Source of the DNA: Vulcanimicrobiales bacterium
GTDB lineage: Bacteria > Vulcanimicrobiota > Vulcanimicrobiia > Vulcanimicrobiales > Vulcanimicrobiaceae
Direction: 5' to 3'
DNA length: 64,000 nucleotides
Assembly (NCBI GenBank): GCA_038215615.1
Contig: JBBQQR010000002.1
Location: 64,001 to 128,000 of the forward strand
Positions 46,016-62,350 of the stretch are shown in pieces; within the stretch, counting starts at the first letter, position 1; every line of letters starts with the position of its first letter. Position numbers and translations under genes: made by a program. The notes under the pieces are model-generated. The model was not told where the DNA came from and ran no database searches. It saw nothing but the letters and a program-made list of their open reading frames with translations.

Positions 46016-46459
46016 TTGCACGCGGATTTGCCGCGCTTTACCGGTACGGCCGAGCATGCCCTTGACGACAAGGGCCGTCTCATCGTGCCCGCGCGCTTCC
46101 GCGAACGACTCGGGAACGGCTTCGTCTTAACCATCGCGCAGCCGGACCCGTGCCTCGCCCTCTATCCGCAGGCGGCTTGGGCCGAATTCTGCAGCCGGCT
46201 CGAAAGCGCCCCGCGGAAGGACGAGCGTTTCCGCCGTCTCGTGCGACACATCTTTGCGCGCACCGAGGAGGTTGCATGCGACGTTCAAGGACGTCTGCTC
46301 ATCCCGTCGGCGCTGCGGGCGTACGCCGGCATCGAGCGCGAGGTCGTTTCTGTCGGCTCGCTCACGCGGGTCGAGATCTGGGCGGCAGAGCGCTACGCCT
46401 CGCACGCCGCGCCCGATCCCGAAGCCGGTGACTTAATGGCGGAGCTGGGACTTTATTAA
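46016..46459 (+). CDS. mraZ: Transcriptional regulator MraZ
   Basis: LDDKGRL.VPARFR and DVQGRLLIP duplicated motifs, VEIW; SD GGGAGG. Confidence 0.95.
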   Translation: MHADLPRFTGTAEHALDDKGRLIVPARFRERLGNGFVLTIAQPDPCLALYPQAAWAEFCSRLESAPRKDERFRRLVRHIFARTEEVACDVQGRLLIPSALRAYAGIEREVVSVGSLTRVEIWAAERYASHAAPDPEAGDLMAELGLY

Positions 46460-46474
46460 TGGCGGGCTGGAGCG

Positions 46475-47347
46475 ATGCAACACATTCCCGTTTTTCACGC
46501 GCAAGCTTTAGAGTGGCTGGCGATTCGCCCGTCTGGGATCTATGTGGATGCGACCTTCGGCGCGGGTGGCCATTCGCGTGGCATCCTCTCGCGTTTGAAG
46601 GGCGGGCGGCTCATTGCGCTCGACGCGGATCCTTCGGCCGGGCCGCGGGCTGCCGAGATCGACGATTCCGCCTTTACGTTTATTCATGCGAATTTCCGCG
46701 AGCTGCCGGACGTTCTCGATCGCCTCGGCATCGAGCTGGTGGACGGCGTTCTGTTCGACTTGGGGGTTTCTTCGATGCAATTTGACGAACCGTCGCGCGG
46801 TTTTTCTTTCCGGGAATCCGGACCGCTCGACATGCGCATGAATCCGCTGGCCGGACGAAGCGCTTACGATGTGCTCATGAGCGCGAGCGAAACCGAACTT
46901 GCCGAGATCTTCTTCGACTACGGTCAAGAACGCGCCGCGCGCAGAATCGCGCGCACGATCGTGCACCGCCGCAAAGCCGGGCTGTTCCCGGGGACAACGC
47001 TGGAGTTTGCGCGCATGATTAGCGGACTGATGCACCGTCCGGGACGGCGCGAGCGCATCCATCCGGCCACGCGTGTCTTTCAGGCACTGCGCATCGCCGT
47101 CAATGACGAACTCGAAGCGCTGCGAGAAGGTTTGGACAGCGCCGTCAACCGGCTGCGCGGAGCGGGACGGGTCGTCGCGATCAGCTTCCATTCATTGGAA
47201 GACCGGATCGTCAAACGCAAATTCTTGCAAGACGATCGTTTAGAAATTCTGACGCGCAAGCCGCTGGTACCCGGTCACGATGAGATCGAACAGAACCCGC
47301 GCGCGAGCAGCGCGAAAATGCGCGCTGCAGAACGGAAGGCGAGCTGA
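46475..47347 (+). CDS. rsmH: 16S rRNA m4C1402 methyltransferase
   Basis: HIPV, DATFGAGGHS, DLGVSS.Q, LDMRM, FQALRIAVN, SFHSLEDR. Confidence 0.97.
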   Translation: MQHIPVFHAQALEWLAIRPSGIYVDATFGAGGHSRGILSRLKGGRLIALDADPSAGPRAAEIDDSAFTFIHANFRELPDVLDRLGIELVDGVLFDLGVSSMQFDEPSRGFSFRESGPLDMRMNPLAGRSAYDVLMSASETELAEIFFDYGQERAARRIARTIVHRRKAGLFPGTTLEFARMISGLMHRPGRRERIHPATRVFQALRIAVNDELEALREGLDSAVNRLRGAGRVVAISFHSLEDRIVKRKFLQDDRLEILTRKPLVPGHDEIEQNPRASSAKMRAAERKAS

Positions 47348-47766
47348 TGGTCGCCTACCAATCCAATCCGCGTCTGCGCAACGTGCGCACCGCCAAGCAC
47401 GCAACGCATCTGCGTAAGACCCACGCGTCGCGCGCTCGTTATACCAGTTTGGTTCGATTTTCGGGGGCACTCGGCGTGGTGCTGGTCGGCGTGATGATCT
47501 ACGTCATGCTGATCGCGAACCTGACGAGCTTGAATTACTCCGTCGCGCGCGCCGACAGACAGCGCGCCTCGCTGCAGGCGGAAACGGCTCGCCTCGACGA
47601 CCGGCTGGCGGCGCTGCGTTCCGACGATCGCTTGGCGAAAATGGCGGCGGCGCTGCATATGCGCGAGCCGCAGCAGTTTGCATTGGTCACGCTTCCGCCG
47701 GCTGCGCCGCAGGGACAATCGAGACTGTTTCTTTCCAGTTTGGCGAGCTGGTTCGGCGCTAAATAG
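47347..47766 (+). CDS. ftsL: FtsL-like bitopic coiled-coil cell division protein
   Basis: Basic N-terminus, one TM, coiled coil; sits between rsmH and the PBP gene. Confidence 0.7.
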   Translation: MVAYQSNPRLRNVRTAKHATHLRKTHASRARYTSLVRFSGALGVVLVGVMIYVMLIANLTSLNYSVARADRQRASLQAETARLDDRLAALRSDDRLAKMAAALHMREPQQFALVTLPPAAPQGQSRLFLSSLASWFGAK

Positions 47767-47782
47767 GGTCTGAAGGAGACTC

Positions 47783-49573
47783 GTGCATCGCCGAAACTTC
47801 TCGCGCGTCGCTCCACGCCGCGCAAAAGCGCTCTTTTACTTCGCTGCTGCGATTGCGCTGATACTGGGCTGGCGGCTCGTGGAAGTGCAAGTCTTCAAAG
47901 GACCGATCTACGCGAAGCAGGCGCTGGCGCAACGCACTGACACGGTCGACGTCTTCGCGCGGCGCGGCAGCATTCTCGATCGAGACGGCAACGTTCTCGC
48001 GTATTCGCTTCCATCGGAAAGCGTCTACGCAGTTCCCCACGATCTCGGCGACGCCGGCGCGACTATCGCGCGGCTCCAGAAAGTGTTGGGAAAAATTCCC
48101 GCCGCGACGACTTCGCTTCTGCGCGACCGCACGATGCAGTTCGTCTGGGTCGCTCGCAAGATTCCACACGATCAGGCCGACGCGATCTCCGCGCTCCAAT
48201 TGCCCGGAATTTCCGTCATGGAAGAAGATACCGGGCGCCGGGTCGATCTCGCCGGCCAAACGGCTTCGACGGTCGTTGGATTTGTGGGGATCGACGAGAA
48301 CGGATTGGCCGGAATCGAGTACGCATACGACGACCTTTTAAAAGGAACGTCGGGGCGCGTCACGCTCGAAGCTGACGAGTTCGGACACCCGATTCCGTTC
48401 GGTCGCCAGCGCGCGGTGCGGGCGGCCAAACCCGGGATGACACTCGAGCTGACGATCGACCCGTATCTGCAGTTCGTGGCCGAAGCCGCACTCAGGAAAC
48501 AGGTCGCGGAATTTCACGCGCAAAGCGGCACGGCGCTGGTCTTGGATCCGTTCACCGGCGAAGTGCTCGCGCTCGCCGACCTGCCGCACTTCGATCCGAA
48601 TTCGTATTGGAAGTTTTCGGCCGACGAGCGCCGCGAGCGTGCAGTGCAAGATTCCTACGAGCCCGGTTCGACGTTCAAACTCTTGACCGCGGCGGCTGCG
48701 CTCGAGAGCGGCAAAGTTACGACGTCGTCGTATTTTCCGGCGCGCAACGCAATCGAAGTCGGCGGCCGCGTGATCCATAACGCCGAAGACGACATGCCGG
48801 TTCGCGGCAGCAGCGAGACGCTTGAAGACATCATCGCGTATTCGCATAACGTCGGAGCGGCCGAAGTCGGCCTCTCGATCGGCGGCAAGACGTTTTATGA
48901 AATGGAACGGCGCGCAGGTTTCGGCGATTCTACGCACGTCGGTTTCGCCGGTGAAAATCCCGGCATCGTGCCTGCGCCCGCGGATTGGAGCGACAGCTCG
49001 CTCGCGACCATGGCGTTTGGGCAGGGCGTTTCGGTAACGCCGCTCGCGCTGGCGCGCTACTATTGTGCGATCGCCAACGGCGGATTGCTGGTGCGCCCGC
49101 GGCTGGTGCGCGCGATCTTCGATGCGCAGGGGCGCCTACTCTATCAGTACGGGCCGGAGATCGAACGGCGCGTCTTTTCTCGGCGCACGGCCGACACGCT
49201 GCGGCGCTTTCTCCGAGCCGTCGTCGTACGTGGTACCGGGAATCCGAGCGCGCAGCTGGCCGGCTATACGACTGCGGGCAAGACCGGCACGGCGCAAGTT
49301 GTCGAAAACGGCCGGTACGAGCCCGGCGCGTACATCGCTTCCTTTATAGGGATGGTGCCCTACGAGCATCCGCGGTACTTAATCTATGTGAAAGTCGAGC
49401 GCCCCGAAGGCGCCATTTACGGCTCCGTGGTCGCCGCGCCGGCTTTTTCCGAGATCGCGCGGCAGGCGATGCTGCACGCCGGGACGCTTCCGGCGACGCC
49501 GCGTCCGAAGCCGTCGCCGGTTCCCGCAAAACGCTTGGTCCGTCCGGAACGCACGGCGAACCTCACCCCATGA
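47783..49573 (+). CDS. ftsI: Class B penicillin-binding protein (FtsI-like)
   Basis: RGSILDR.G, G..GIE, EPGSTFK (SxxK), SHN (SxN), GKTGT. Confidence 0.93.
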   Translation: MHRRNFSRVAPRRAKALFYFAAAIALILGWRLVEVQVFKGPIYAKQALAQRTDTVDVFARRGSILDRDGNVLAYSLPSESVYAVPHDLGDAGATIARLQKVLGKIPAATTSLLRDRTMQFVWVARKIPHDQADAISALQLPGISVMEEDTGRRVDLAGQTASTVVGFVGIDENGLAGIEYAYDDLLKGTSGRVTLEADEFGHPIPFGRQRAVRAAKPGMTLELTIDPYLQFVAEAALRKQVAEFHAQSGTALVLDPFTGEVLALADLPHFDPNSYWKFSADERRERAVQDSYEPGSTFKLLTAAAALESGKVTTSSYFPARNAIEVGGRVIHNAEDDMPVRGSSETLEDIIAYSHNVGAAEVGLSIGGKTFYEMERRAGFGDSTHVGFAGENPGIVPAPADWSDSSLATMAFGQGVSVTPLALARYYCAIANGGLLVRPRLVRAIFDAQGRLLYQYGPEIERRVFSRRTADTLRRFLRAVVVRGTGNPSAQLAGYTTAGKTGTAQVVENGRYEPGAYIASFIGMVPYEHPRYLIYVKVERPEGAIYGSVVAAPAFSEIARQAMLHAGTLPATPRPKPSPVPAKRLVRPERTANLTP

Positions 49574-51030
49574 TCGAACCGGGCGTGCTGCTGGAACTGC
49601 TGCTCGAAGGATTGCCGGACAGCCGCATCACCGGCGGCGGGTCCGTGATGGTTTCGTCGCTCTCTTTCGATTCGCGATCGGTTCGGCCCGGCGCGTTGTT
49701 TTTTGCGATTGCCGGCGAACATACCGACGGCCACCGCTACGTAGGTGAAGCCATCGCGCGCGGCGCCTGTGCCGTGATCATGGAGCGCGATGTCGATCTT
49801 CCGCCGAATATTGCCGGCGTGATCGTCCCGGATTCGGCAGCGGCGCTTTCAAAGATCGCCGACACGTTCTATCGATCGCCGTCGCGCAATCTCGCAATCG
49901 CCGGAATCACCGGAACCAACGGGAAGACGACCGTCACGCACATGATCGCCGCTATCGCTAACGCGGCCGGTATTTCCGCGGGGATTGTCGGTACGCTCGG
50001 AACGAAATTTGACGACATAGATCGCCCACTCGACCACACGACGCCGCTCGCGTCGGAGTTACAAGCGCTGCTCGCGCAGATGCGCGACAAAGCCGTGAAA
50101 ATTGTGGCGATGGAAGTCAGTTCGCACGCGCTCGCGCTCGAGCGCGTTTCCGACGTACATTTTGCCGTGGCGGGGCTGACGAACGTCACGCGCGATCATC
50201 TGGATTTTCACGAAACGCCCGAAGCCTACGCCGCTGCTAAGCGCCGGCTCTTCGATTTTGCGGAGCGCGCCGTTCTCAATGCCGACGATCCGTACGGAGC
50301 TCGGTGGGCCGCCGAGCTGCGCGACGTAAAACCCGTTGTTGCTTTTGGCGTGGAGTGTCCGGCTGACGTCCGCGCGGAAAAAATTCGCGTACACGCGAGC
50401 GGTTCGAACTTCGAGGTAGACGGACGGCAATTCGAGCTCCGACTTACCGGACGGTTCAACGTCAGCAACGCTTTGTGTGCGATCGCTTCCGCGCGAATGC
50501 TTGGAATCGCGGACGATATCTCTGCGCGCGGCTTGGCGTCGGTCGAACACGTGCGCGGTCGCATGGAGCGTATCGATGGCGGCGACGTCGACGTGATCAT
50601 CGATTACGCGCATACGCCCGACGCGTTGGAATCCGCATTGCGCGCGCTGCGCGAAGTAGCGCCCGGCCGTCGCATCGTCGTTTTCGGCTGCGGCGGCGAT
50701 CGGGATCGCGGTAAGCGGCGCGAGATGGGCGCGGTCGTCGCGCAAAATGCGGACTACGCCTACGTAACATCCGACAATCCGCGCACAGAAGATCCGCGCG
50801 CGATTATTGAAGACATACTGCCCGGCATGGCAGGGGCGCCGCACGAAGTCGAACCGGATCGCCGCCGCGCGATCGCGACTGCGATTCGAAACGCGCAACC
50901 CGGCGACACGATTTTGATCGCCGGCAAAGGTCACGAGACATATCAGATCGTCGGCAAGCGAGTCTTACCATTTGATGACGCCGCCGAAGCGCGCCGTGCG
51001 CTGGCGGAACGCGAGCGCGTTCCATCATGA
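49570..51030 (+). CDS. murE: UDP-MurNAc-dipeptide:meso-DAP ligase
   Basis: GITGTNGKTT, MEVSSH, DHLDFH, DYAHTPD, DNPR (meso-DAP-type motif), AGKGHE. Confidence 0.96.
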   Translation: MIEPGVLLELLLEGLPDSRITGGGSVMVSSLSFDSRSVRPGALFFAIAGEHTDGHRYVGEAIARGACAVIMERDVDLPPNIAGVIVPDSAAALSKIADTFYRSPSRNLAIAGITGTNGKTTVTHMIAAIANAAGISAGIVGTLGTKFDDIDRPLDHTTPLASELQALLAQMRDKAVKIVAMEVSSHALALERVSDVHFAVAGLTNVTRDHLDFHETPEAYAAAKRRLFDFAERAVLNADDPYGARWAAELRDVKPVVAFGVECPADVRAEKIRVHASGSNFEVDGRQFELRLTGRFNVSNALCAIASARMLGIADDISARGLASVEHVRGRMERIDGGDVDVIIDYAHTPDALESALRALREVAPGRRIVVFGCGGDRDRGKRREMGAVVAQNADYAYVTSDNPRTEDPRAIIEDILPGMAGAPHEVEPDRRRAIATAIRNAQPGDTILIAGKGHETYQIVGKRVLPFDDAAEARRALAERERVPS

Positions 51031-52397
51031 CGCTTTCGTTCGAACGTGCGGCCGAGGCGACAGGCGCGGAAATGCGCGGTCGCGAGCGCGCTCCCGAAAC
51101 GCTCACGGTTGTCACCGATACGCGGTCGCTGAATCCGGGAGATACGTTCCTGGCACTGCGCGGCGAGCACTTTGACGGCCACGATTTCATCGGCGAGGCG
51201 CTGAAAAAAGGCGCCGCGGCCGTCGTCGTCGATTCTCCCGAGGCTCAAAGCAACGGCGTCGCTGCGCTGATCGTACGCGACACGCGCCGGGCGTACATGG
51301 ATTTGGGTGCGGCGTCGCGCGCGCAGTTTTCCGGACGCGTCGTCGCGGTGACCGGCAGCTGCGGAAAAACGACGACCAAAGATTTTCTGTGCCAGCTGCT
51401 GATCGCGACGCTGGGACCTTCGGCCGTCGCTTCATCGCCGGGGAATGAAAACAATGAAATCGGCGTCAGCAAGCTGTTGCTCTCGCTCACGCCGCAGCAG
51501 CAGATGCTCGTTGTCGAGATGGGCGCGCGGCATACCGGCGAGATTGCCGAACTGGTCGCGATTGCATCGCCGCATATAGGTATATTGACGAACGTAGGCG
51601 ACGCGCATTTGGAGATTTTCGGATCGCGCGAGAAGCTGGCGGCCACGAAATGGGGGCTGTTTTCAGAGGGCGCGCAGGCTGTGCTCAACGCGCGCGATGA
51701 GATCTCTCGTAACCGGTCGAGCTCGCTCGAAGCGCCGCCGCTGTGGTTTGGCGAAGGCGAGCCTTCGCTGCCCGGCGTCTGGGTCCGCGACGAAAGCACG
51801 CTCGTGCTCAACTATGGCGGCGCCTCCCAGACGCTTTCGATCCGCACGCCGTTTCCCGGCGCGCACAATCGCGCGAACCTTGCGGCTGCAATTGCGGGGG
51901 CGCTGTTGCTCGGAATAAACGCCGAGGAAATCGCGAGTAACGTCGCGGGACTCGTCTTGCCGCCAGGGCGGTATGAAAACATCGCGATCCCCGCCGGGCC
52001 GCGGCTCATTTATGATGCGTACAACGCGAACGCGAGCGGCACGATAGCGTCGCTTACGACCTTCTCAGCGGAAAACGCTCGCCGCCGCATTGCGGTGCTT
52101 TCCAGCATGGCGGAGCTCGGTTCCGATGCACCTGCGATCCACGAACGCGTTGGAGCTCACGCGGCGTCGATGAACATCGACGTGCTGCTGGTCGGGGGGG
52201 ATTTTGCCGCATCGCTAGCCGCGGGCGCGGTGCGCGCGGGCTTGTCGCGCGAGCAGATCGTGACGTTCGGCGAAAACGAAGAAGTGGCGAAGTGGCTTCG
52301 CAAACATGCTACCGATGAAGACGTCGTCTTGCTGAAAGGCTCGCGCAAATACCGCATGGAGGAGATCGTGCAGTCGCTTCGGGCAGGTGCGGCGTGA
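51027..52397 (+). CDS. murF: UDP-MurNAc-tripeptide:D-Ala-D-Ala ligase
   Basis: DTR, VTGSCGKTTTK, NNEIG, EMG, DAYNAN, M.ELG, KGSR. Confidence 0.96.
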   Translation: MTLSFERAAEATGAEMRGRERAPETLTVVTDTRSLNPGDTFLALRGEHFDGHDFIGEALKKGAAAVVVDSPEAQSNGVAALIVRDTRRAYMDLGAASRAQFSGRVVAVTGSCGKTTTKDFLCQLLIATLGPSAVASSPGNENNEIGVSKLLLSLTPQQQMLVVEMGARHTGEIAELVAIASPHIGILTNVGDAHLEIFGSREKLAATKWGLFSEGAQAVLNARDEISRNRSSSLEAPPLWFGEGEPSLPGVWVRDESTLVLNYGGASQTLSIRTPFPGAHNRANLAAAIAGALLLGINAEEIASNVAGLVLPPGRYENIAIPAGPRLIYDAYNANASGTIASLTTFSAENARRRIAVLSSMAELGSDAPAIHERVGAHAASMNIDVLLVGGDFAASLAAGAVRAGLSREQIVTFGENEEVAKWLRKHATDEDVVLLKGSRKYRMEEIVQSLRAGAA

Positions 52398-53098
52398 GCG
52401 GAAGCTTGCGCGTCGACCGCCCGCAGATTCCGGCCGGCATGGTTGCGATTCCGGTGCGCACGCGTCTCGTGCAGCCGGGAGAAGATCTCCCCGCGCTTAT
52501 TCAAACCTCGGTTGACGGCATCGCGCAGCCCGGGGACGTGCTGGCGATTTCTGAAACCGCTGTCGCGATCGCGCAGCGTCAGGCGGTGCCCGCGGAGTAC
52601 GTGCGCCCGTCGCGCCTCGCGCTGCTGCTCTCGCGCCACGCCGGCGCCATGGCGACCGTGAGTCAGCCGGAGTCGGTGCAGATCGTGATCGACAACGTCG
52701 GCGCTCCGAAAGTCGCATACGCTGCCGTTATGCAAGTTTTGGGGCGTTTGGCCGGCCGGCGCGGCATGTTCTATGAAATTTTGGGCGAGGCGATTGCGGC
52801 GATCGATGGGTACACCGGGACGATGCCGCCGTTTGATAACATGATCGTCTTTGCGCCGCAAAACCCCGACGCGTTTGCGCAGTCCGTTTTTGAGCGGACC
52901 GGTATTGGATGCGCGGTGGTCGACGCGAACGATCTCAATAGCGCCAAAGTTTTGGGCGCGTCGTCCGGCGTCAATCGCGACAGCGTCGCCGAGGCGCTCC
53001 TTTCAAATCCTCACGGCAACGGAGACGAGCAAACACCGGTCGTTGTTCTGAAGTGGCGCGGCGAGGGCCGCAATCCGCTGGTCGAGGCACGCCCGTGA
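52394..53098 (+). CDS. CofE-like (F420-0:gamma-glutamyl ligase family) amide ligase inside the dcw cluster
   Basis: PVRTRLVQPGEDL, GDVLAISETAVAIAQ, AAIDG, VVDANDL and NPHGNGDEQTPVVVL resemble CofE-fold motifs; GTGA overlaps with both murF and mraY. Confidence 0.72.
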   Translation: MSGSLRVDRPQIPAGMVAIPVRTRLVQPGEDLPALIQTSVDGIAQPGDVLAISETAVAIAQRQAVPAEYVRPSRLALLLSRHAGAMATVSQPESVQIVIDNVGAPKVAYAAVMQVLGRLAGRRGMFYEILGEAIAAIDGYTGTMPPFDNMIVFAPQNPDAFAQSVFERTGIGCAVVDANDLNSAKVLGASSGVNRDSVAEALLSNPHGNGDEQTPVVVLKWRGEGRNPLVEARP

Positions 53099-54078
53099 AT
53101 ACGGTCGATTTCGCCGTGCAGATTCATCCATGGGGACTGGTCGCCGTTGCACTCCTCGGCTTTTTGCTAGCCGTCGTCACCTGCGCCCTACTATTACCGG
53201 TGTTGGGCAAACTGCAACTGCGCCAACGCGCGTACGAAGACGCGCCCGAGTCCCATCAAATAAAGACGGGAACGCCCACGATGGCGGGAGCGTGCTTTGT
53301 GATTGCGCTCGTACCGATGCTGCTCATACCGAGTGCCGCACTCGGCTATTTGTTGGCGCTGGTGGCCGGTTGCGCGCTCATCGGATTGCTCGACGACGTA
53401 TTGGGCGTACGCTTCGGACGAAATCGGGGGCTAAGAGCGCGTACGAAATTCTTGTTCACAGCGCTCGTAGCGGTCATGTTCCTGCGAGCAATCGACGGCG
53501 GGAGTGCCGTCTATCCCCGTGACGTCATTTTAACCATTAGCAGTCACGCGATCCCCGCTCCTCATTGGGTGTGGTTAATCCTGGGTATCGTCGCGATTGC
53601 GGGTACAATGCACGCCGTTAACCTTACCGACGGCCTCGATGGTCTCGCGTCCGGCGCGATGGTTTTTCCGCTGGGCGTGCTCGCAACTCTGGCCGTGATC
53701 ACTTTCACCGCGCTCAGCATTCCGGCGCTCCTCGGCCTAGGAGCGTGCTTGGGTTTTCTTGTTTACAATCGGTACCCGGCGAAGCTCATCATGGGTGACA
53801 CGGGTTCCCTTGCGCTCGGCGCGTTGCTTTCGGGGATTGCGATCCTGAGCGGGCAGATGCTGCTCCTGGTCATCATCGGTGGCGTTTTCGTGGCCGAAGC
53901 GCTGTCGGTAATGACCCAGGTCGTGTACTTCAAACTGACGCACGGCAAGCGCATCTTCAAGATGAGTCCGTTGCACCATCATTTCGAGCTATCCGGATGG
54001 CCGGAAACAAAAGTAACGACGCGGTTTTGGATTGCGTCCGCGATTTTCTCCGCCGTGGGACTGGCGATCGTAAGATGA
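53095..54078 (+). CDS. mraY: Phospho-N-acetylmuramoyl-pentapeptide transferase
   Basis: H..K.GTPTM, IGLLDD, AVNLTDGLDGL, MGDTGS, F.MSPLHHHFE. Confidence 0.97.
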   Translation: MNTVDFAVQIHPWGLVAVALLGFLLAVVTCALLLPVLGKLQLRQRAYEDAPESHQIKTGTPTMAGACFVIALVPMLLIPSAALGYLLALVAGCALIGLLDDVLGVRFGRNRGLRARTKFLFTALVAVMFLRAIDGGSAVYPRDVILTISSHAIPAPHWVWLILGIVAIAGTMHAVNLTDGLDGLASGAMVFPLGVLATLAVITFTALSIPALLGLGACLGFLVYNRYPAKLIMGDTGSLALGALLSGIAILSGQMLLLVIIGGVFVAEALSVMTQVVYFKLTHGKRIFKMSPLHHHFELSGWPETKVTTRFWIASAIFSAVGLAIVR

Positions 54079-55454
54079 ATTTTGCTGCCGGCGAGAAGAT
54101 CTTGGTCATCGGGCTCGGGCGCAGCGGGAAAGCCGTCGCCGAAGTCTTGCGCGGCCGCGGCGCCGATGTATATGCCATCGACGAAAAACCCCGGGCCGAG
54201 CTCGCGGAGACGATTGCCGGTCTTGAAGCAATGGGCGCGCAGTACGTCGCCCCCGAGAACATCGGAGAACTCACCAACGTGAATTGCGCCGTCCTGTCTC
54301 CGGGCGTGCCGCTGAACGGACCGCTGGTCCGCAAGATCCAGAGCGGCAACATTCCGGTCTACAGCGAGATCGAAGTCGCTTACCGTTTGTGCAAGGCGCC
54401 GATTATCGCCGTCACGGGAACCAAAGGAAAATCGACGACAGCCTCGCTTATCGGCCACTTGCTGCGCGCGTCGGGCAAAGATGCGCGCGTCGGCGGCAAC
54501 ATCGGCAATCCGCTCATTCTGGAAGCCGTTGCCGCGTCGCCGGAAAGCTGGGTCGTAGCCGAAGTGTCGTCGTTCCAGCTCGAAACGATTCGCTCGTTCC
54601 ATCCGCGTGTATCGGTGCTTCTGAATATTTCGGCCGACCATCTGGACCGGTATCACTCGATGGACGAATACATCGAAGCGAAATATCGCATCTTCGCAAA
54701 CCAAAACGAACACGACGTCTTTATCGGAAACCTCGACGATCCGGTGCTGGCACTTTTGCACCGGCACTCGGGCGAAGCGCGCGTGCGCGCCAAACAAATG
54801 TGGTTTACGCTCGGAAACGACAGCAAACACGCGACGATGTACTTGCGCGACGGCATGCTAATCTTTTCGCCGGTGACCGGCGATCCGCGGCCGATCGCTA
54901 TTGCGGGCCGCGACGATATTTCATTGGCGGGACTGCACAACGTGCAGAACGTTATGGCCGCGTCGCTGGCCGTGCTGGCTGCCGGCCTCGAACCGCGCGA
55001 ACTTCGCGACGGCATCCGGACCTTCGGTCCCATGTCGCACCGCATGCAGCCCGTCGGTGAAGTTGACGGCGTCCTTTACGTGGACGATTCGAAAGCCACC
55101 AACCCAGGCGCCGTAATCGCGGCTCTGCGCGCGTATGACAAACCCATCGTGCTAATCGCCGGCGGGAAACCCAAGAACACCGACTTTACCGAACTCGGCC
55201 GGGTCGTTGACGAACGCGCCCGCGCGCTCGTGGTGATCGGCGAAGCCGCTGGCGACATTGCGGCGCACGTGTACCGCACGCCGATCGAGCGCGCCGGTTC
55301 CATGGAAGAAGCGGTTCGCACGGCGCAGTCGCTGGCCCAGCCCGGTGACATCGTATTGCTTTCGCCGGCATGCGCCTCGTTCGACATGTTCGAATCGGCC
55401 GAAGATCGCGGACAAAAATTTACCGATGCTGTGTTGGGGACGCCGGCGCGATGA
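54075..55454 (+). CDS. murD: UDP-MurNAc-L-Ala:D-Glu ligase
   Basis: GLGRSG, SPGVP, GTKGKST, GGNIG, EVSSFQL, DDSKATN, LSPACASFD. Confidence 0.97.
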   Translation: MNFAAGEKILVIGLGRSGKAVAEVLRGRGADVYAIDEKPRAELAETIAGLEAMGAQYVAPENIGELTNVNCAVLSPGVPLNGPLVRKIQSGNIPVYSEIEVAYRLCKAPIIAVTGTKGKSTTASLIGHLLRASGKDARVGGNIGNPLILEAVAASPESWVVAEVSSFQLETIRSFHPRVSVLLNISADHLDRYHSMDEYIEAKYRIFANQNEHDVFIGNLDDPVLALLHRHSGEARVRAKQMWFTLGNDSKHATMYLRDGMLIFSPVTGDPRPIAIAGRDDISLAGLHNVQNVMAASLAVLAAGLEPRELRDGIRTFGPMSHRMQPVGEVDGVLYVDDSKATNPGAVIAALRAYDKPIVLIAGGKPKNTDFTELGRVVDERARALVVIGEAAGDIAAHVYRTPIERAGSMEEAVRTAQSLAQPGDIVLLSPACASFDMFESAEDRGQKFTDAVLGTPAR

Positions 55455-56611
55455 AAGCTTCGGTTGCCAAGCGGCAGGCCCATAACCAAGAACTTCCGCG
55501 TTCGTTCGTCGCTTCGCCGCCCGACACGTGGCTGTTCATCGCGGTCACGAGTTTGGTTGCGATTGGGCTGGTCATGATCTTCAGCGCCTCGAGCGCGCAA
55601 GCGTACGCCGATCACCACGACACGGCGTACTACGTGAAGCGGCAAGCACTGTATCTGGTGATCGGGTTGATAGGCGCGTACTTTGCCTACAAGATCGATT
55701 ACCGCAAGCTGCGCGCGTTCGCTCCCTACGCGCTGCTGCTATGCATCGCAGGTCTGCTGACCGTTTTCGTTCCACACGTAGGTCAGACAGTCTCCGGCGC
55801 ACGCCGCTGGATCGGCGCGGGCTCGATTTCTTTGCAGCCTTCCGAGTTTGCCAAACTGGGCCTCGTGATCTATTTAGCGGCGGCGCTCGCGGGCCGCGGC
55901 GAACGTATCACCTCGCTGACGCGGGGGCTCGCGCCGCTCTGCATCCCCGTCTTTTTCACGGCGATGCTGGTGCTCATCGAACCCGACATCGGAACGTCGA
56001 GCCTCTTGGTCTTCACGGCATTTGCCATGTTCTTCGCGGCCGGAGCGCGGTTCGAGCATCTGCTGATGGTTATTGCGGTCACCCTTCCTCCGGCCGCCAT
56101 CGCGATCATGAGCAGTCCGTACAAGCGCGCGCGCATTTTTGCGTTTCTGCATCCTTTCAAAGACGCGCAGAACACCGGCTTTCACATCGTGCAGTCGTTG
56201 CTTGCGCTTGGCAGCGGGGGCGTCTTCGGCGTCGGGCTGGGCGAATCGCGCGCGAAATTTTTCTATCTCCCCGAGCAATACACCGACTTCATCTTCTCCG
56301 TGCTCGGCGAAGAGCTCGGCTTGATCGGAACGGCTACCGTCCTGATTCTCTTCGGAACGCTGGCCTACCGCGCGATTCGCATCGCCATCGCCGCGCCCGA
56401 CCGGTTCGGCTTCTTCCTGGCGACCGGCTGCGCCGCACTCATCGTCATTCAGGCGTTCGTGAACATCGCTGTCGTCACGTCGTCCTGGCCCGTAACCGGC
56501 GTGCCCCTTCCTTTTATATCGTTTGGCGGAAGCTCGCTGATCGTGTCGCTGATCGCCGTCGCGCTGATCATCAACGTCGGGCGGCACCGGCGGCTATCTC
56601 CTCCAGAGTGA
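55451..56611 (+). CDS. ftsW: SEDS peptidoglycan polymerase FtsW
   Basis: GARRWI, QPSEFAK, LPEQYTDFIF..LGEELG, GVPLPFISFGGSS. Confidence 0.95.
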   Translation: MKASVAKRQAHNQELPRSFVASPPDTWLFIAVTSLVAIGLVMIFSASSAQAYADHHDTAYYVKRQALYLVIGLIGAYFAYKIDYRKLRAFAPYALLLCIAGLLTVFVPHVGQTVSGARRWIGAGSISLQPSEFAKLGLVIYLAAALAGRGERITSLTRGLAPLCIPVFFTAMLVLIEPDIGTSSLLVFTAFAMFFAAGARFEHLLMVIAVTLPPAAIAIMSSPYKRARIFAFLHPFKDAQNTGFHIVQSLLALGSGGVFGVGLGESRAKFFYLPEQYTDFIFSVLGEELGLIGTATVLILFGTLAYRAIRIAIAAPDRFGFFLATGCAALIVIQAFVNIAVVTSSWPVTGVPLPFISFGGSSLIVSLIAVALIINVGRHRRLSPPE

Positions 56612-57717
56612 GAGTCGCGTTCGCGGGCGGCGGAACGGGTGGCCACGTCTATCCCGCGATCGCGATTGCCGACGCACTGCGCGATCGGGCCGAAATTCTC
56701 TTTATCGGAAGTCCCGACGGAATTGAAAACACGCTGGTTCCCGCGGCCGGCTACGAACTGGAGACAATCGAAAGCAGTCCACTGCAGCGCAGCGCTTCGT
56801 TGGGTACGCTGCGTACAATCGCCGCAAACGCCGTCGGGATCGCGCAAGGCGTGGGCGTGTTACGGACCTTCGATCCCGACATCGCGATCGCAACGGGTGG
56901 CTACGTTTGCTTTCCGGCGATGGCGGCTGCGCGAATTCTGCGCGGCGTGCGCCCGGGTCCGGCACTTGCTCTGCTCGAACCCAACGCGCATCCGGGACTT
57001 GCGAATCGCTTGCTGGCGCCGATCGTCGACGAAGTTTGGGGCGCATTTCCGCAAGCCGATCGGGCTTTTGCACGCAAGTACGTTTACACGGGCGTTCCGG
57101 TTCGTTCTTCGCTGCTCCATCCCGACAACCGGATAGAAGCGGCGCGCCGCCTCGGGTTGGATCCGTCGCGGCGCACGATTCTGGCGATCGGCGGAAGCCA
57201 GGGCGCGCGCACGATCAACGAAACCGTTGCAGCGCTGGTGACGCGGCGTGCACTGCCGCCTGCCTGGCAGGTGCTGCACATCTGCGGCGAGCGCGACTAC
57301 GAATATATGCAGGCCGCCGAGCGCACGCCCTTCGGCGAGAATCTCGCCGTACTCGTTGCATACTTGCCCGACATGGCTGACGCGTACGCCGTCTGCGATC
57401 TCGCCATCGCCCGCGCGGGTGCCTCCACGCTTGGCGAACTGACCGCCCTCGGGATTCCCGCGGTACTCGTGCCCTATCCGTTTGCAGCCGATGACCACCA
57501 AGCGCGGAACGCGCGGATGCTCGCCGACAGCGGCGTGGCCGTGGTCATCGCGGATGGGGAGCTTAACGCCGATTCGCTCTGGTGGACGCTGCGCGAGCTG
57601 ATGCAGCCCGAACGGCTCGACGAAATGCGTTCCGCCGCGCGTTTGCGCGCCAATCGCGACCCGGTCACGGCAATTCTTGCGCGGGTGGAGGCGCTCGTTA
57701 CCAAGAACGAGAGCTGA
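56608..57717 (+). CDS. murG: Lipid I N-acetylglucosaminyltransferase
   Basis: GGGTGGHVYP, GGYV, GGSQGA, RAGASTL.E, DHQ..NA; GTG start overlaps the ftsW stop. Confidence 0.96.
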   Translation: MRVAFAGGGTGGHVYPAIAIADALRDRAEILFIGSPDGIENTLVPAAGYELETIESSPLQRSASLGTLRTIAANAVGIAQGVGVLRTFDPDIAIATGGYVCFPAMAAARILRGVRPGPALALLEPNAHPGLANRLLAPIVDEVWGAFPQADRAFARKYVYTGVPVRSSLLHPDNRIEAARRLGLDPSRRTILAIGGSQGARTINETVAALVTRRALPPAWQVLHICGERDYEYMQAAERTPFGENLAVLVAYLPDMADAYAVCDLAIARAGASTLGELTALGIPAVLVPYPFAADDHQARNARMLADSGVAVVIADGELNADSLWWTLRELMQPERLDEMRSAARLRANRDPVTAILARVEALVTKNES

Positions 57718-57719
57718 CC

Positions 57720-59078
57720 TTGCGAACTTTGCACTTCGTCGGAATCGGCGGCATCGGCATGAGCGCCATCGCGCGCATCTTGCTCCAACGCGGCGAACGC
57801 GTGACCGGTTCGGACGCCATCGATTCGCCGCTGATTAAAGAATTGAGAGCTGCGGGCGCGACCGTTATCGTCGGGCACGACGCGCGCAACGTCAACGGCG
57901 CAACGACGGTCGTCGTCAGCTCTGCGATCGATCACGAGAATCCGGAGTACCGCTGCGCGCTGGAGCGCGGCATTCCCATCATCGCGCGCGGCGAAATGCT
58001 CGCGCGGATCATGGAGGGCCGTCGCGGCATTGCGATTTGTGGAACGCACGGCAAGACGACGACGACCGCTATGACCGCCGCGGTCTTGCGTGGCGCGAAC
58101 GTCGACGCAAGCCTGGTGCTCGGCGGCATCGACGGCGAGCTCGGCACGAACGCACATGACGGCACCGCACCCTGGTTTCTCACCGAAGCCGACGAGTCCG
58201 ACGGGTCGTTCAGGCTGCTCGATCCGGCCGTCGCGGTTGTGACGAACATCGAGAACGACCACCTCACTTCCGATGCCGAGATTCCGCAGCTCGTCGCTTC
58301 CTTTGAAGAATTTCTGGCAAAAGCGCCGGCCGACGGCGCCGCGATCGTCGGCGTCGACAATCCCCTGACGCGATCCCTGGCACAGAGCGCCCGCCGCGCG
58401 CGCACCATCACCTTTGGAATAGCCGCCGATGCGAGCATGCACGCCTCGAACATTCGTTTCGAACAGGTGCAGTCTACATTCGAGCTTTTCGCCGACGGCG
58501 CCCGATTGGGAACGGTCGAACTGCACGTGCCCGGCGCGATGAACGTCGAGAACGCGCTGGCCGCCGCCGCGGTAGGCTGGGCGCTGGATATTCCCTTCGC
58601 TTCGATGGCCGAATCGCTTAGCGGGTTTCGCGGTGTGCGCCGCCGCTTCGACGTTTTGGCGAAGAGCGCGCGCATGATCGTGGTCGACGACTACGCACAT
58701 CATCCGACTGCGGTGCGTGAAACGATCGCCGCCGCCCGCCGCTACCATCACGGTCCGATCGTCGTCGCGTTTCAGCCGCACCGATACACGCGCACGGCGT
58801 ATTTGGCGAACGCGTTCGCGGAGGCACTTTCGGATGCCGATCGCGTGTACTTGGCTCCCATCTACGGCGCGGGCGAAACGCCGGTGGATGGCGTGACGGA
58901 GCGCCTCATCGGCGAGCCGCTGGCGGCTGCGGGCGTACAAATCTCGTACGTCAATTACGTGCACGACCTGCGTGAAGTATTGCAGCGCGAGGCGCCGGCG
59001 AACGCGCTCGTACTCATGCTCGGGGCCGGAAACATCACCAAGGTTGCGGCCGAACTCGCGCGGGACGTCTCCGCGTGA
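57720..59078 (+). CDS. murC: UDP-MurNAc:L-Ala ligase
   Basis: HFVGIGGIGMS, GTHGKTTT, EADESD, DDYAHHPT, FQPHRYTR; TTG start 57720. Confidence 0.97.
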   Translation: MRTLHFVGIGGIGMSAIARILLQRGERVTGSDAIDSPLIKELRAAGATVIVGHDARNVNGATTVVVSSAIDHENPEYRCALERGIPIIARGEMLARIMEGRRGIAICGTHGKTTTTAMTAAVLRGANVDASLVLGGIDGELGTNAHDGTAPWFLTEADESDGSFRLLDPAVAVVTNIENDHLTSDAEIPQLVASFEEFLAKAPADGAAIVGVDNPLTRSLAQSARRARTITFGIAADASMHASNIRFEQVQSTFELFADGARLGTVELHVPGAMNVENALAAAAVGWALDIPFASMAESLSGFRGVRRRFDVLAKSARMIVVDDYAHHPTAVRETIAAARRYHHGPIVVAFQPHRYTRTAYLANAFAEALSDADRVYLAPIYGAGETPVDGVTERLIGEPLAAAGVQISYVNYVHDLREVLQREAPANALVLMLGAGNITKVAAELARDVSA

Positions 59079-60022
59079 TCGCTGCAGATTCCGAACTGAG
59101 CAGCCTGCTGACCGGCGCCGATCGCCAAAAGCTCTGCGCGATCTGCGGCGACGGCGCGCGTTTCGACGAACCGCTGGCGCCCTACACCTCGTGGAAGATT
59201 GGCGGGCCGGCCGATGCGTGGGTCGTGGCCGAAAATGAAGAACAGCTCGCGGAGATCATGCGGCTGTGCGCGCGCCGGAAGCTGCCGTGGTTCGTCCTCG
59301 GAAGCGGCAGCAATCTACTGATCGGCGACGGAGGCATTCGTGGATTGGTTTTGCGGCTGGCCGGCGACTTCGCCGCGATCGATGTCGACGATAGCGGCAC
59401 GGAAGTGACCGTTCGTGCGGGTGCATCGGCGGCGATGTCGCTGCTGACCGCCAAAGCAGCGTCGGCAGGCGCGGTCGGCATCGGTTCGCTGGCGGGAATA
59501 CCCGGCAGCGTGGGCGGTTCGCTGCGCATGAATGCGGGCACCGATCGCGAGATTGGCGAATTCGTGCGCGAAGTCTGGGTGCAGTCGCCGGCGAAGGCGC
59601 AGGCGCAGCCGGTTTCCGTGCAATATTATTACCGTCACACGTCGCTCGCGCGCGACGCGATCGTTTCGCGCGTGACGCTGGCGTTCGAGCGTGGAGAAGC
59701 GCGAGCTGTGCGCGAGGAGATGCAAGAGCGCCTCGTGCGCCGCAAACGCACGCAGCCGATCGCGTTGCCCAATGCCGGCTCGTGTTTCCGCAATCCCGAG
59801 GGCGACAAAGCGGCGCGTTTGATCGAGGCTGCCGGCGCTAAGGGGTGGCGCGAAGGCGGCGCGGAAGTCTCGGCGCTGCATGCTAACTTCATCACCAACA
59901 CGGGGAATGCGAGCGCGAAAGATGTTGCGACCCTGCTGGCGCGCGTCCGCCGCGCGGTGAGCGAACAGTTCGGCGTGGATTTACAACTCGAAGTGCATCT
60001 GGTCGGCGTCTTTATCGAATGA
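59075..60022 (+). CDS. murB: UDP-N-acetylenolpyruvoylglucosamine reductase
   Basis: IGGPAD, LGSGSNLL, GIPGSVGG..MNAG, AGSCFRNP, HANF, LEV. Confidence 0.95.
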   Translation: MIAADSELSSLLTGADRQKLCAICGDGARFDEPLAPYTSWKIGGPADAWVVAENEEQLAEIMRLCARRKLPWFVLGSGSNLLIGDGGIRGLVLRLAGDFAAIDVDDSGTEVTVRAGASAAMSLLTAKAASAGAVGIGSLAGIPGSVGGSLRMNAGTDREIGEFVREVWVQSPAKAQAQPVSVQYYYRHTSLARDAIVSRVTLAFERGEARAVREEMQERLVRRKRTQPIALPNAGSCFRNPEGDKAARLIEAAGAKGWREGGAEVSALHANFITNTGNASAKDVATLLARVRRAVSEQFGVDLQLEVHLVGVFIE

Positions 60023-60963
60023 AAAAGAAAAAAGCGCGCGTCGCGGTGGTGATGGGCGGTTCGAGCGCCGAGCGCGAGATTTCCATTCGAACCGGAACCG
60101 GAGTCATGCGCGCGCTCGAATCGCTCGGATATGCCGCGCAGTCGCTCGATTACGATCGGAAGTTTGTTGACGCAATTCGCGACATCGCTCCGGATGCGGT
60201 CTTCAATGCGCTGCACGGTCCCGGCGGCGAAGACGGCCAAGTGCAGGGGATCCTCGATTTTCTCGGCCTGCCATACACGGGCAGTGGTTTGGAAGCCGCG
60301 GCGCTTGCCATGGACAAGCACCTGACCAAGAAGCTGTTTTCGGCCGAAGGCTTGCCGACGGCAATGTGGGATCTCTTCGATCTTTCCGGCGGTACGCTGC
60401 CGCTCTTGCCGGGATCGCTCGATTTGCCGCTGGTCGTGAAGCCGCGTTACCAAGGCAGCAGCGCGGGCGTCTCTATCGTGCGGACGCACGAGCAATGGTC
60501 GCAAGCGATGATCGCGTCGGCCGAGCAATACGCCGAAGTCATTGCTGAAGAGTTTATTCCGGGGCGCGAGTTCACGTGCGGCGTGCTTGGCGAAGAAGCG
60601 CTTCCGGTCGTCGAGATCGTTTCAAATGCCGGCGAGTTTTACAACTTCGAATCCAAATACGCCGCTGGCGGCAGCACGCACGTCGTCCCGGCGCCGATCG
60701 ACCCCGATCTCGCGGCGCGCATCGGGATGCTCGCGCTTTCGGCGCACCGCCTGGTCGGGCTGCGGGATTATTCGCGCACGGATTTTATCGTCAGCAAGGA
60801 AGGCCGCCCGTATATCTTGGAAATCAACACGCTGCCCGGCTTGACGCCGACGAGCCTGCTGCCCGACGCCTGCAACGCGGCCGGCATCGGTTATGAAGCG
60901 CTCATCGACCGGCTCTTGGGCTACGCGCTTTCGCGCAACGGCGAACGCGTGCTGACGAAGTGA
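60019..60963 (+). CDS. ddl: D-alanine--D-alanine ligase
   Basis: GG.SAEREIS, LHG..GEDG, GSS.G, FY.FESKY, LEINTLPG. Confidence 0.96.
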   Translation: MKKKKARVAVVMGGSSAEREISIRTGTGVMRALESLGYAAQSLDYDRKFVDAIRDIAPDAVFNALHGPGGEDGQVQGILDFLGLPYTGSGLEAAALAMDKHLTKKLFSAEGLPTAMWDLFDLSGGTLPLLPGSLDLPLVVKPRYQGSSAGVSIVRTHEQWSQAMIASAEQYAEVIAEEFIPGREFTCGVLGEEALPVVEIVSNAGEFYNFESKYAAGGSTHVVPAPIDPDLAARIGMLALSAHRLVGLRDYSRTDFIVSKEGRPYILEINTLPGLTPTSLLPDACNAAGIGYEALIDRLLGYALSRNGERVLTK

Positions 60964-60970
60964 GAAGATA

Positions 60971-62350
60971 ATGTTCGATTGCCGCTGCCCACACGTTCCC
61001 CATTCCGATCGTTTGTTCGCGCAAGTCGAACTGCTCTACGCGCGCCGGTCGTTTTTGCTCGGCGCCGCTGCCGCCGGAGCGGCGCTCTTTCTGCCGTGGC
61101 GCGCGCGAGCGGCCGAACAAGTGGCGGTGCTCAAAGCGGCGCGGCTTTTTGACGGCGAAGAATTTAAGACTCCCGGCGTGCTGGTGATCAAGGGACAGCG
61201 CATCGTTTCGATGCACGCCGGCGACGCGGGCAGCGACGCGCAGGTCGTCGACTTTGGTGCGGCGACGCTGATGCCCGGCCTGATCGACTGCCACACGCAC
61301 ATTGCCGCGCGCGTTGTTCCCGACACATATATGCTCTCGTTGATGCCGCCAAAAACCGCAGCGGACAACGTGGCGGAAGCTGCGATCTACAGCATTCACA
61401 ACGCGCAGTCGATGCTGCGCAATGGATTTACGACCGTCCGTGATGTCGGCGGCGGCGCCGGAATCGATCTCGCGCTGCGCAATGCGATCGCCAATGGCGC
61501 GATAGTTGGTCCACGCATCCTCGCGGCAGGGCCGTCGCTTTCAATTACGGGCGGACACGGCGACACCAACGATCTGCCCGAATTCGTGCACGTCGATCAG
61601 CCGATCGAGAGCGGCGTCTCGTACGGGCCATACGGTTTTCGCGAACGCGTGCGCGAGCATGTCAAGCGCCATGTCGACCTCATCAAGATCCTCGCAACAG
61701 GCGGGGTGCTTTCGTACGGGGACGTTTGGGATATTCCGCAGTTCAATCTCGACGAAGTGCAAGCGGTCGTCGATGAATCGACGAAGTTCGAGCGCCGCGT
61801 CGCGGCGCACGCGCACGGCGATAAGGGTATCGCGGTAGCCGTTGAGGGTGGGGTTCATTCGATCGAACACGGCACCGGCGTCAGCGAAGCCACGCTCAAG
61901 AAGATGGAAGATCGCGGCACCTACCTAACGCCGACGATTTGGGCGCTCGACTCGATTTTGCAGCCGGGCAATCCGAACAAAGTCTCGCCCGGCGGCGTCG
62001 CAAAAGCCGAACTGGCGTCGGAGCTGCGCAACGCCGGCATGCAGCGTGCGATCTCCAGCCGCGTGAAAATTTCTTACGGCACGGACGCCGGCGTTTTTCC
62101 GCACGCGGAAAACAATAAAGACTTCGCGCTTTTGGCGTCGATGGGGATGCGGCCGATTGACCTGTTGCGGTCGGCTACCAGCCGCGCGGCCGACTTGCTG
62201 GGAACGTCCGACCGCGGCACGCTGGCGCCCGGAAAACTTGCCGACGTCATCGCCGTTTCGGACGACCCGGCGGCAAATATCCGAACGCTTGAAAAGCCTT
62301 CTTTCGTGATGCTGGGGGGGCGCCGGATCGATACGTCGCGCCTGGCGTAA
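60971..62350 (+). CDS. Tat-exported metal-dependent amidohydrolase (Xaa-Pro dipeptidase-like)
   Basis: RRSFLL twin-arginine motif, PGLIDCHTH, GFTTVRD, AAHAHG, SIEHG, GTDAG. Confidence 0.88.
   Translation: MFDCRCPHVPHSDRLFAQVELLYARRSFLLGAAAAGAALFLPWRARAAEQVAVLKAARLFDGEEFKTPGVLVIKGQRIVSMHAGDAGSDAQVVDFGAATLMPGLIDCHTHIAARVVPDTYMLSLMPPKTAADNVAEAAIYSIHNAQSMLRNGFTTVRDVGGGAGIDLALRNAIANGAIVGPRILAAGPSLSITGGHGDTNDLPEFVHVDQPIESGVSYGPYGFRERVREHVKRHVDLIKILATGGVLSYGDVWDIPQFNLDEVQAVVDESTKFERRVAAHAHGDKGIAVAVEGGVHSIEHGTGVSEATLKKMEDRGTYLTPTIWALDSILQPGNPNKVSPGGVAKAELASELRNAGMQRAISSRVKISYGTDAGVFPHAENNKDFALLASMGMRPIDLLRSATSRAADLLGTSDRGTLAPGKLADVIAVSDDPAANIRTLEKPSFVMLGGRRIDTSRLA

Follow-up and report, generated by a model that had tools for sequence, protein, structure and literature searches.

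A 64,000-nucleotide stretch of contig JBBQQR010000002.1 from a Vulcanimicrobiales bacterium (assembly GCA_038215615.1, positions 64,001 to 128,000; hereafter the window, whose own numbering is used for its genes) carries a division and cell wall (dcw) cluster on the + strand at 46016-60963. Within it lies a CofE-fold ligase-like gene, here called X. The cluster runs mraZ-rsmH-ftsL-like-ftsI-murE-murF-X-mraY-murD-ftsW-murG-murC-murB-ddl, with a murE of the meso-diaminopimelate (mDAP) type. X (52394-53098, +) encodes a protein of 234 amino acids from a GTG start and was assigned by its match to PF01996, its predicted fold and its place in a tree. It is preceded by murF (51027-52397, +), the UDP-MurNAc-tripeptide:D-Ala-D-Ala ligase gene, recognized by Pfam Mur ligase domains and by TIGR01143 (361.6 bits, cut-off 288.6), and followed by mraY (53095-54078, +), encoding phospho-MurNAc-pentapeptide translocase (PF00953, 104 bits). 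The initial annotation, drawn from the letters alone, had described a 234-residue open reading frame (ORF) between murF and mraY with GTGA overlaps of 4 nt on both sides. The frame and the upstream overlap hold: in GTGA at 52394-52397, the GTG start of X shares bases with the TGA stop of murF (52395-52397). At the other end, the TGA stop of X (53096-53098) overlaps by 4 nt a GTG at 53095 in the mraY frame, and this downstream coupling is only plausible because an earlier in-frame GTG, at 53053, could also start mraY. The GTG start of X is credible since its N-terminus is conserved in relatives from residue 1-5. The ratio of nonsynonymous to synonymous substitution rates (dN/dS) against three same-genus orthologues was 0.065-0.10, and X is therefore a real gene under selection. 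Because the surrounding dcw set is complete, X replaces nothing; a role as substitute for Ddl, FolC or a Mur ligase was rejected, Ddl, FolC and MurC-F all being present.

The initial annotation had called X CofE-like, and comparison with family models agreed. X scored 46.1 bits against Pfam PF01996 (gathering cut-off 25), matching profile positions 2-130 of 218. Against the NCBIfam equivalog models for CofE it stayed far below the cut-offs, with 23.3 bits for TIGR01916 (cut-off 180.65) and 28.9 bits for NF009809 (cut-off 274). An AlphaFold2 model of X, with 48 relatives in the alignment, reached a predicted local distance difference test (pLDDT) value of 90.4. When this model was compared with the PDB by Foldseek, the only significant entries were the CofE structures 2PHN, 7ULD and 2G9I (E 7.7e-11 to 3e-9, template modelling (TM) score 0.55-0.59); 2PHN was the best match (E 7.7e-11, TM score 0.58), and the next non-CofE match had an E value of 0.9. 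As modelled, X has the CofE fold. Profile-profile alignment of X with CofE gave a probability of 98% over 144 columns, with hhalign spanning residues 24-185 only; the C-terminal third of X, after residue 185, could not be aligned to CofE profiles, and the model carries a helical insert at residues 85-135.

The X family and CofE have in common the N-terminal motifs GDDL and GD..v.sE..vAI.QGR. Among 48 divergent relatives of X, the residues D48, D138, D177, N179, D180, N205, P206, G208 and T214 were near-invariant. We compared these positions, through the 2PHN alignment, with D109, D150 and T151, the metal and nucleotide ligands of Archaeoglobus fulgidus CofE. HMMER paired D177 of X with D150 of CofE, hhalign paired N179 with it instead, a disagreement of two positions, and hhalign also placed A133, not D138, opposite D109. 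Conservation of the active site in X is therefore no more than likely. CofE itself, according to the available part of PMC10861534, binds GTP and two Mn2+ ions at a dimer interface, phosphorylates the substrate carboxylate and lets the amine attack, and its F420-binding elements comprise a domain-swapped beta-hairpin, G153-C155 and R234 of the partner chain. In the same available text, the authors call this mechanism, with two metal ions and an acyl phosphate, closely similar to that of MurD.

Several results indicate that X does not serve F420 synthesis. The window's genome (2.21 Mb, 100% complete) has X as its sole PF01996 match. F420 genes, of which the initial annotation had noted none besides X in the window, were absent from all 64 kb of it and from the whole genome as well, the best whole-genome scores staying below cut-off for CofD (18.8 against 257 bits), CofG (62.5 against 213) and CofC (31.8 against 105). 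We extended the comparison to 151 genomes of the phylum Vulcanimicrobiota, equivalent to Eremiobacterota (labels include Candidatus Baltobacteraceae), a sample that includes one unpublished genome, G127, among the nine of family f3. A homologue of X was found in 149 of the 151, the two genomes lacking it being 75% and 67% complete. The window's class contributed 82 genomes, all carrying X, and CofD was found in none of them, against 38 of the other 69. Five cofD-bearing genomes of sister classes each had a canonical cofE (203-230 bits), adjoining cofD in both genomes where coordinates were compared, and four of the five carried a divergent X-type paralogue (22-50 bits) besides it. In a maximum-likelihood tree of 63 rows, canonical CofE stood on a long branch with support of 100/100. 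X scored 12.6 bits against the FolC2-type folate ligase model TIGR04132 (cut-off 350), and the genome has a standard FolC (322.5 bits, cut-off 162.65). On these sequence comparisons X is not the F420-0:L-glutamate ligase, and its family is not tied to cofC or cofD, a distinction that the initial annotation had proposed to look for. Five family members (P0008, P0063, P0071, P0072 and P0119) are labelled 'ribosomal protein S28E/S33' by one source and 'coenzyme F420-0:L-glutamate ligase' by NCBI; both labels look like mis-annotations.

The place of X in the dcw cluster is a property of the class and not of this genome alone. The order murF-X-mraY was present at all 29 loci of same-family relatives and at all five further loci of the class or order, within rsmH-ftsI-murE-murF-X-mraY-murD-ftsW, hence at 34 of 34 class loci. 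In one lineage the two genes have merged: locus L049 (5420-7720, genome G085) encodes an in-frame MurF::X fusion whose two parts are joined, in one uninterrupted frame, by a linker some 65 residues long, murF and X share a frame in L050, and the representative P0123 has the same architecture as L049. Open frames of more than 700 amino acids, which could suggest a MurF fusion, proved to be one only in L049 and L050; for family f1 the idea was dropped, since murF and X lie there in different frames. A prediction of a MurF and X complex (alignments A5 and A1) scored 0.00, which is evidence neither for nor against an interaction.

In the sister classes the homologue is a protein of about 400 amino acids amid variable neighbours (15 loci). 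A model of this longer form (pLDDT 90.9) places an N-terminal transmembrane helix and an Ig-like beta-sandwich ahead of the CofE-like domain; the N-terminal domain gave only generic matches to Ig-like sandwiches (adaptin ear, ApaG). Because basic residues follow the helix in most of these sequences, the positive-inside rule would place the catalytic domain on the cytoplasmic face. X itself has no signal peptide. This, together with fusions of family members to MurF and AsnB, which work in the cytoplasm, with the layout of P0260, where a transmembrane segment lies between the CofE-like part and a deacetylase domain outside the cytoplasm, and with the relatives bearing a transmembrane helix, argues that X is cytoplasmic and membrane-proximal. 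Xenobia and cyanobacteria have the module of helix and sandwich as part of the ligase protein, whereas Negativicutes and Syntrophomonadaceae-like Clostridia encode it in a small gene of its own directly upstream (L181:4429-4983, L194:4404-4976, L286:2914-3462, L320:2902-3465).

Links to peptidoglycan recur across the wider family. Searched exhaustively with HMMER, 1.84 billion representatives yielded 713 matches at E values up to 1e-3, and a Pfam scan covered 147 of the 150 matches listed from it. Among these 147 representatives, extra domains comprised Amidase_3 (six), AsnB-like amidotransferase (seven) and TPR (ten), with single fusions to MurF, MraY, Polysacc_deac_1, peptidase M20, adenylate kinase, GNAT, HD_4 and PlsY; those to PlsY, HD_4, adenylate kinase and peptidase M20 (P0267, P0245, P0265 and P0263) are unexplained. 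When genome contigs were scanned with degenerate patterns from alignment A7, 568 relatives were confirmed, and the 80 loci kept belong to Acidimicrobiia, many Clostridia, Cyanobacteria, Negativicutes, Cloacimonadota and Xenobia. In Cloacimonadota, X is embedded in the mre operon: L230 (3159-9088) reads mreB-mreC-X-mreD-PBP2-rodA, with X overlapping mreC and abutting mreD, and at all three loci from this phylum (L230, L195, L235) mreC and mreD flank X, with genes for a penicillin-binding protein and a RodA-like protein downstream. Desulfotomaculum copahuensis has the order Amidase_3, L,D-transpeptidase, Amj, X, then pyruvoyl arginine decarboxylase. In all, 25 loci have an Amidase_3 gene at most about 1 kb upstream of X, in many cases directly abutting it; the partner amidases have an AMIN-like N-terminus and no signal peptide, and L208 encodes an amidase-X fusion. 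By these gene orders and architectures, peptidoglycan links appear to have arisen independently in at least five forms: the dcw position, the mre operon, the MurF fusion, the Amidase_3 fusions and neighbours, and the deacetylase, Amj and L,D-transpeptidase associations. In the tree, X falls in a clade with support of 100/98 together with the decarboxylase-linked, cyanobacterial, Negativicutes, Cloacimonadota and Xenobia forms. We call the non-F420 paralogous family that includes X and has the C-terminal motif NPxGNxDEQTP the GN clade. Oscillospiraceae forms, which have GQ where X has GN, and the AsnB-fused forms lie outside the supported clade of X.

A clue to the amine came from a survey of neighbouring genes, made by tblastn of neighbour proteins over 181 loci. 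A pyruvoyl-dependent arginine decarboxylase (PvlArgDC) was found near X in 20 loci and a pyridoxal phosphate-dependent Orn/Lys/Arg decarboxylase (OKR_DC_1) in 15. A decarboxylase lay within a few kb, and often directly beside X, in 34 of the 80 loci from other phyla and in the Firmicutes locus L057; it abuts or overlaps X in L161, L168, L188 and L200, and is at least one gene away in L162, L164 and L216. The two decarboxylase folds are unrelated, and they occur in differing orientations and in at least 3-4 clades of the tree, as would be expected if the ligase consumed a decarboxylated basic amino acid. Amidase, ligase and decarboxylase occurred together in 17 loci. In cyanobacteria, a GNAT-domain protein is encoded directly downstream of X in 18 loci, and one representative is a fusion with GNAT. 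The cyanobacterial order there is a membrane-anchored form of about 390-405 amino acids, a GNAT-domain protein of 400-440 amino acids and ruvX (L199:4452-7464, L224:4446-8330 and 16 more), and Prochlorococcus carries a divergent version of the gene downstream of X.

Polyaminated peptidoglycan has been known chemically in Selenomonas since 1981; the activity that attaches the polyamine in Selenomonas and Veillonella has been described on lipid intermediates, and a form with N-acetylputrescine is known from cyanelles. Polyamines on the stem-peptide D-Glu of Selenomonas and Veillonella are described in PMC10628300, bioRxiv 10.1101/2021.05.31.446380 and PMC12826042, and the available portions of these three sources name no enzyme for the step. 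S. ruminantium has cadaverine-linked peptidoglycan. The X family was present in all 61 genomes of the family of G152 (labelled Selenomonadaceae) and in all 13 of the family of G151. Its holders include S. ruminantium-labelled metagenome-assembled genomes, S. sputigena ATCC 33150, S. bovis, Mitsuokella multacida DSM 20544, Anaerovibrio lipolyticus, Megamonas hypermegale, Pectinatus haikarae and Propionispira arboris. A separate set of 80 loci, kept by their similarity to a query from Selenomonadaceae, contained no Veillonella and is thus uninformative on that genus. In Negativicutes, X is preceded in turn by a 4HBT thioesterase gene, a murI-like gene (three of eight loci) and the small gene for transmembrane helix and sandwich. 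After X, the Negativicutes loci L228 (5727-7486), L194 (5655-7488) and L233 carry genes for an HGD-D-like dehydratase component and a BadF/BadG-type ATPase, with no obvious link to the cell wall.

In the window's genome, MurE is of the mDAP type (517 bits, cut-off 373). Neither MurT_C nor Asn_synthase was found in the genome, so the known systems for amidating stem carboxylates were not found here. The Mur-ligase family is represented by only five genes, those for MurC, D, E, F and FolC, and Mpl is lacking. An OKR_DC_1 decarboxylase (289 bits, contig C1:79811-81295) is 43% identical to the operon-linked enzyme of Acidimicrobiales. The sole Amidase_3 of the genome carries a signal peptide; this 507-residue protein is encoded at contig C35:133-2429 of G000, the window's genome (L243), with murI directly downstream. 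The initial annotation had connected polyamination with tethering of the outer membrane through porins bearing S-layer homology (SLH) domains. Vulcanimicrobium, the one cultured member of the phylum, is described as diderm with thin peptidoglycan. The genome has three SLH matches, the best of them a lipoprotein-like protein of 368 amino acids and not a porin, and it has a CsaB-like pyruvyl transferase gene. We found no specific support here for a polyamine-SLH tether.

At the end of the cluster, 8 nt after ddl and at the place expected for ftsQ, ftsA and ftsZ, lies a gene for an Amidohydro_1 protein (60971-62350, +), whose best NCBIfam match is the Caulobacter-type Xaa-Pro dipeptidase (343 bits, below the cut-off of 500); a 314-residue unassigned ORF and then citrate synthase follow. 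The murE frame (48985-51030, +) is open from a TTG at 48985, giving 681 amino acids and an overlap of about 590 nt with ftsI. Its Mur-ligase domains begin near residue 224, the true start is probably near 49573, and the long frame looks like a high-GC open-frame artefact.

Taken together, the comparisons point to X as a cytoplasmic, nucleoside triphosphate (NTP)-dependent CofE-fold ligase that would amidate a stem-peptide carboxylate with a diamine, a reading for which we judge the chances to be even. By analogy with CofE, X would phosphorylate a free stem-peptide carboxylate on a late precursor (UDP-MurNAc-pentapeptide, lipid I or lipid II), and the amine would then attack the acyl phosphate. 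The carboxylate would most likely be the alpha group of D-iso-Glu or, as an alternative, the epsilon group of mDAP, and the amine would most likely be a decarboxylated basic amino acid (cadaverine, putrescine or agmatine), supplied in this organism by the OKR_DC_1 enzyme. Substrate, carboxylate, amine, nucleotide and activity are all inferred. The initial annotation had suggested that a polyamine or amino acid is added to a peptidoglycan precursor, and that idea has gained from the fusions, the embedding among mre genes, the 35 decarboxylase loci and the presence in the Selenomonadaceae family. Of the findings named there as refuting it, three were looked for and none was borne out: the fold is that of CofE, the dcw position extends across the class, and an F420 pathway is absent. 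The further proposition, that the X family is the missing gene for covalent peptidoglycan polyamination, is one we advance tentatively and rate somewhat below even.

A number of observations weigh against the diamine ligase. The support is comparative, consisting of the fold, the absence of F420 genes, the coupling to murF and mraY, the fusions and operons, the decarboxylase neighbours and the phyletic pattern. The expectation that homologues would recur in mur operons was borne out within the class and failed beyond it: the dcw position was absent from all 15 loci of other classes of the phylum and from all 161 loci of other phyla. The proposed amine source is not linked to X in its own genome, where OKR_DC_1 adjoins pdxS/pdxT, and the co-occurrence of the two does not discriminate, an OKR_DC_1 orthologue being present in 82 of 82 class genomes and 148 of 151 phylum genomes. 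No decarboxylase was seen near X in the Negativicutes loci, and within the sampled phylum that holds these loci the X family occurred in only 41 of 121 genomes; polyaminated peptidoglycan has been described for Negativicutes more broadly. The outer-membrane rationale does not hold as a general one, since many holders are monoderm Clostridia and Acidimicrobiia. The Oscillospiraceae branch showed none of the amidase, decarboxylase or GNAT neighbours in its own 80 loci, and partner amidases that lack an export signal are left unexplained by a diamine ligase. At the residue level, the QGR motif of the family is QRQ in the window's genus, and HMMER and hhalign are split over which of D177, N179 and D180 corresponds to D150/T151.

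Among the other explanations, the one that survives best keeps X as a peptidoglycan-precursor ligase and changes the nucleophile to ammonia or an amino acid, making X either an analogue of MurT, converting D-Glu to D-iso-Gln, or an enzyme placing glycine or another adduct on D-Glu or mDAP. We regard it as unlikely, with several points in its favour. The amidation slot is open in this genome, where MurT_C and Asn_synthase were not found, and neither here nor in Negativicutes does a decarboxylase adjoin X; in seven representatives the CofE-like domain is joined to a glutamine amidotransferase of the AsnB type, an enzyme that makes ammonia for amidating carboxylates, and the nucleophile of CofE is itself an amino acid, as the available text of PMC10861534 states. 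However, the AsnB-fused forms fall outside the well-supported GN clade with X, whereas decarboxylases of two unrelated folds recur within that clade (35 loci), and no glutaminase partner adjoins X in the class.

Less probable still is an enzyme unconnected with peptidoglycan, which would attach a polyamine or glutamate to some other metabolite, cofactor or polymer (as a FolC2-type ligase, in a polyamine conjugate or on F420), the dcw position being an accident of the lineage. Limitation of that position to one class would fit such an accident, as would the contexts with no cell-wall character (HGD-D/BadFG in Negativicutes, RuvX in cyanobacteria) and the odd fusions to ADK, HD_4, PlsY and M20, and the CofE family does include a predicted folate ligase model, TIGR04132. 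Yet X gave this model only 12.6 of the 350 bits set as its cut-off, a standard FolC is present, the genome has no F420 pathway, and at least five independent forms of link to peptidoglycan would have to be set aside.

A third possibility, which we consider very unlikely, is that X acts like MurC or Mpl on the D-lactyl carboxylate of UDP-MurNAc and re-attaches, in recycling, stem peptides freed by a cytoplasmic amidase. It would account for the Amidase_3 proteins without signal peptide that are fused or adjacent to family members (six representatives and 25 loci), and the genome lacks Mpl; moreover, the natural acceptor of CofE, F420-0, presents a lactyl carboxylate (PMC10861534, available part) and is chemically the closest analogue of UDP-MurNAc. 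But recycling leaves the decarboxylase and GNAT neighbours unexplained, the sole Amidase_3 of this genome has a signal peptide, and neither universality nor coupling to murF and mraY would be expected of a recycling enzyme. Finally, a non-catalytic CofE-fold regulator, scaffold or precursor-binding factor coupling MurF to MraY, for which the unalignable C-terminal third, the altered QGR in the window's genus and the MurF fusion in one lineage might speak, is the least probable of all, given the near-invariance of D48, D138, D177, N179, D180, N205 and T214 in 48 divergent sequences, the dN/dS of 0.065-0.10 and operon partners that make a candidate substrate and so argue for catalysis.

If the diamine ligase is the right reading, a new enzyme class would enter the Mur pathway, with a polyamination step hard-wired between MurF and MraY in the class Eremiobacteria. 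Modified stem peptides would be widespread, in all Eremiobacterota, many cyanobacteria, Cloacimonadota, Acidimicrobiia and many spore-forming Clostridia, meaning that a soil phylum of global abundance, and cyanobacteria too, would carry a cell-wall modification that has gone unrecognised; in cyanobacteria the GNAT protein could give the N-acetylputrescine form. Thousands of entries named 'coenzyme F420-0:L-glutamate ligase' in organisms without F420 would be reassigned. Cadaverine or putrescine on D-Glu is needed for outer-membrane tethering in Negativicutes, the gene is named in no text searched, and the present work nominates a candidate family, testable in cultured Selenomonas, Mitsuokella and Anaerovibrio and in a cultured Eremiobacterota strain. 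Within the libraries searched, no paper was found to link a CofE-like family to the cell wall; papers on PF01996 dealt with F420 or protein design. Should the diamine prove wrong, the X family would still stand as highly conserved and mis-annotated, with at least five independent connections to cell-wall genes.

Among known systems, the activity of Selenomonas and Veillonella that attaches cadaverine or putrescine to the alpha-carboxylate of D-Glu is the same reaction as that proposed for X, and relatives of X are predicted to be membrane-anchored on the cytoplasmic side. That the X family supplies this activity is what we infer, the literature searched assigning it no gene; the family is patchy in the phylum of the Negativicutes (41/121) and occurs in monoderms too. 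MurT/GatD and the AsnB/LtsA-type mDAP amidotransferases likewise modify a stem carboxylate late, at the cytoplasmic face and through an activated acyl intermediate, and AsnB-like domains are fused to some X-family members; their folds, of the Mur-ligase and Asn-synthase types, are nevertheless unrelated to that of X, and their nucleophile is ammonia. With the Mur ligases MurC-F and Mpl, X shares an operon and, in one lineage, a polypeptide with MurF, and the same chemistry is predicted for it, following the parallel between CofE and MurD drawn in the available part of PMC10861534; unlike them, it has no Mur-ligase domains and, at 234 amino acids, is about half their size. The closest relatives in structure are CofE and FbiB's N-terminal domain (A. 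fulgidus; 2PHN, 2G9I, 7ULD; PF01996, TIGR01916), which have the same fold, an acidic motif that may correspond to D150/T151 of CofE and, by analogy, probably the same mechanism with NTP, divalent metals and an acyl phosphate. X differs from them in its equivalog scores below cut-off, its unalignable C-terminal third and its helical insert at residues 85-135, and the neighbours of its family are cell-wall and polyamine genes, not cofC and cofD. All in all, these likenesses and differences suggest that X represents a new functional form among ligases with the CofE fold.

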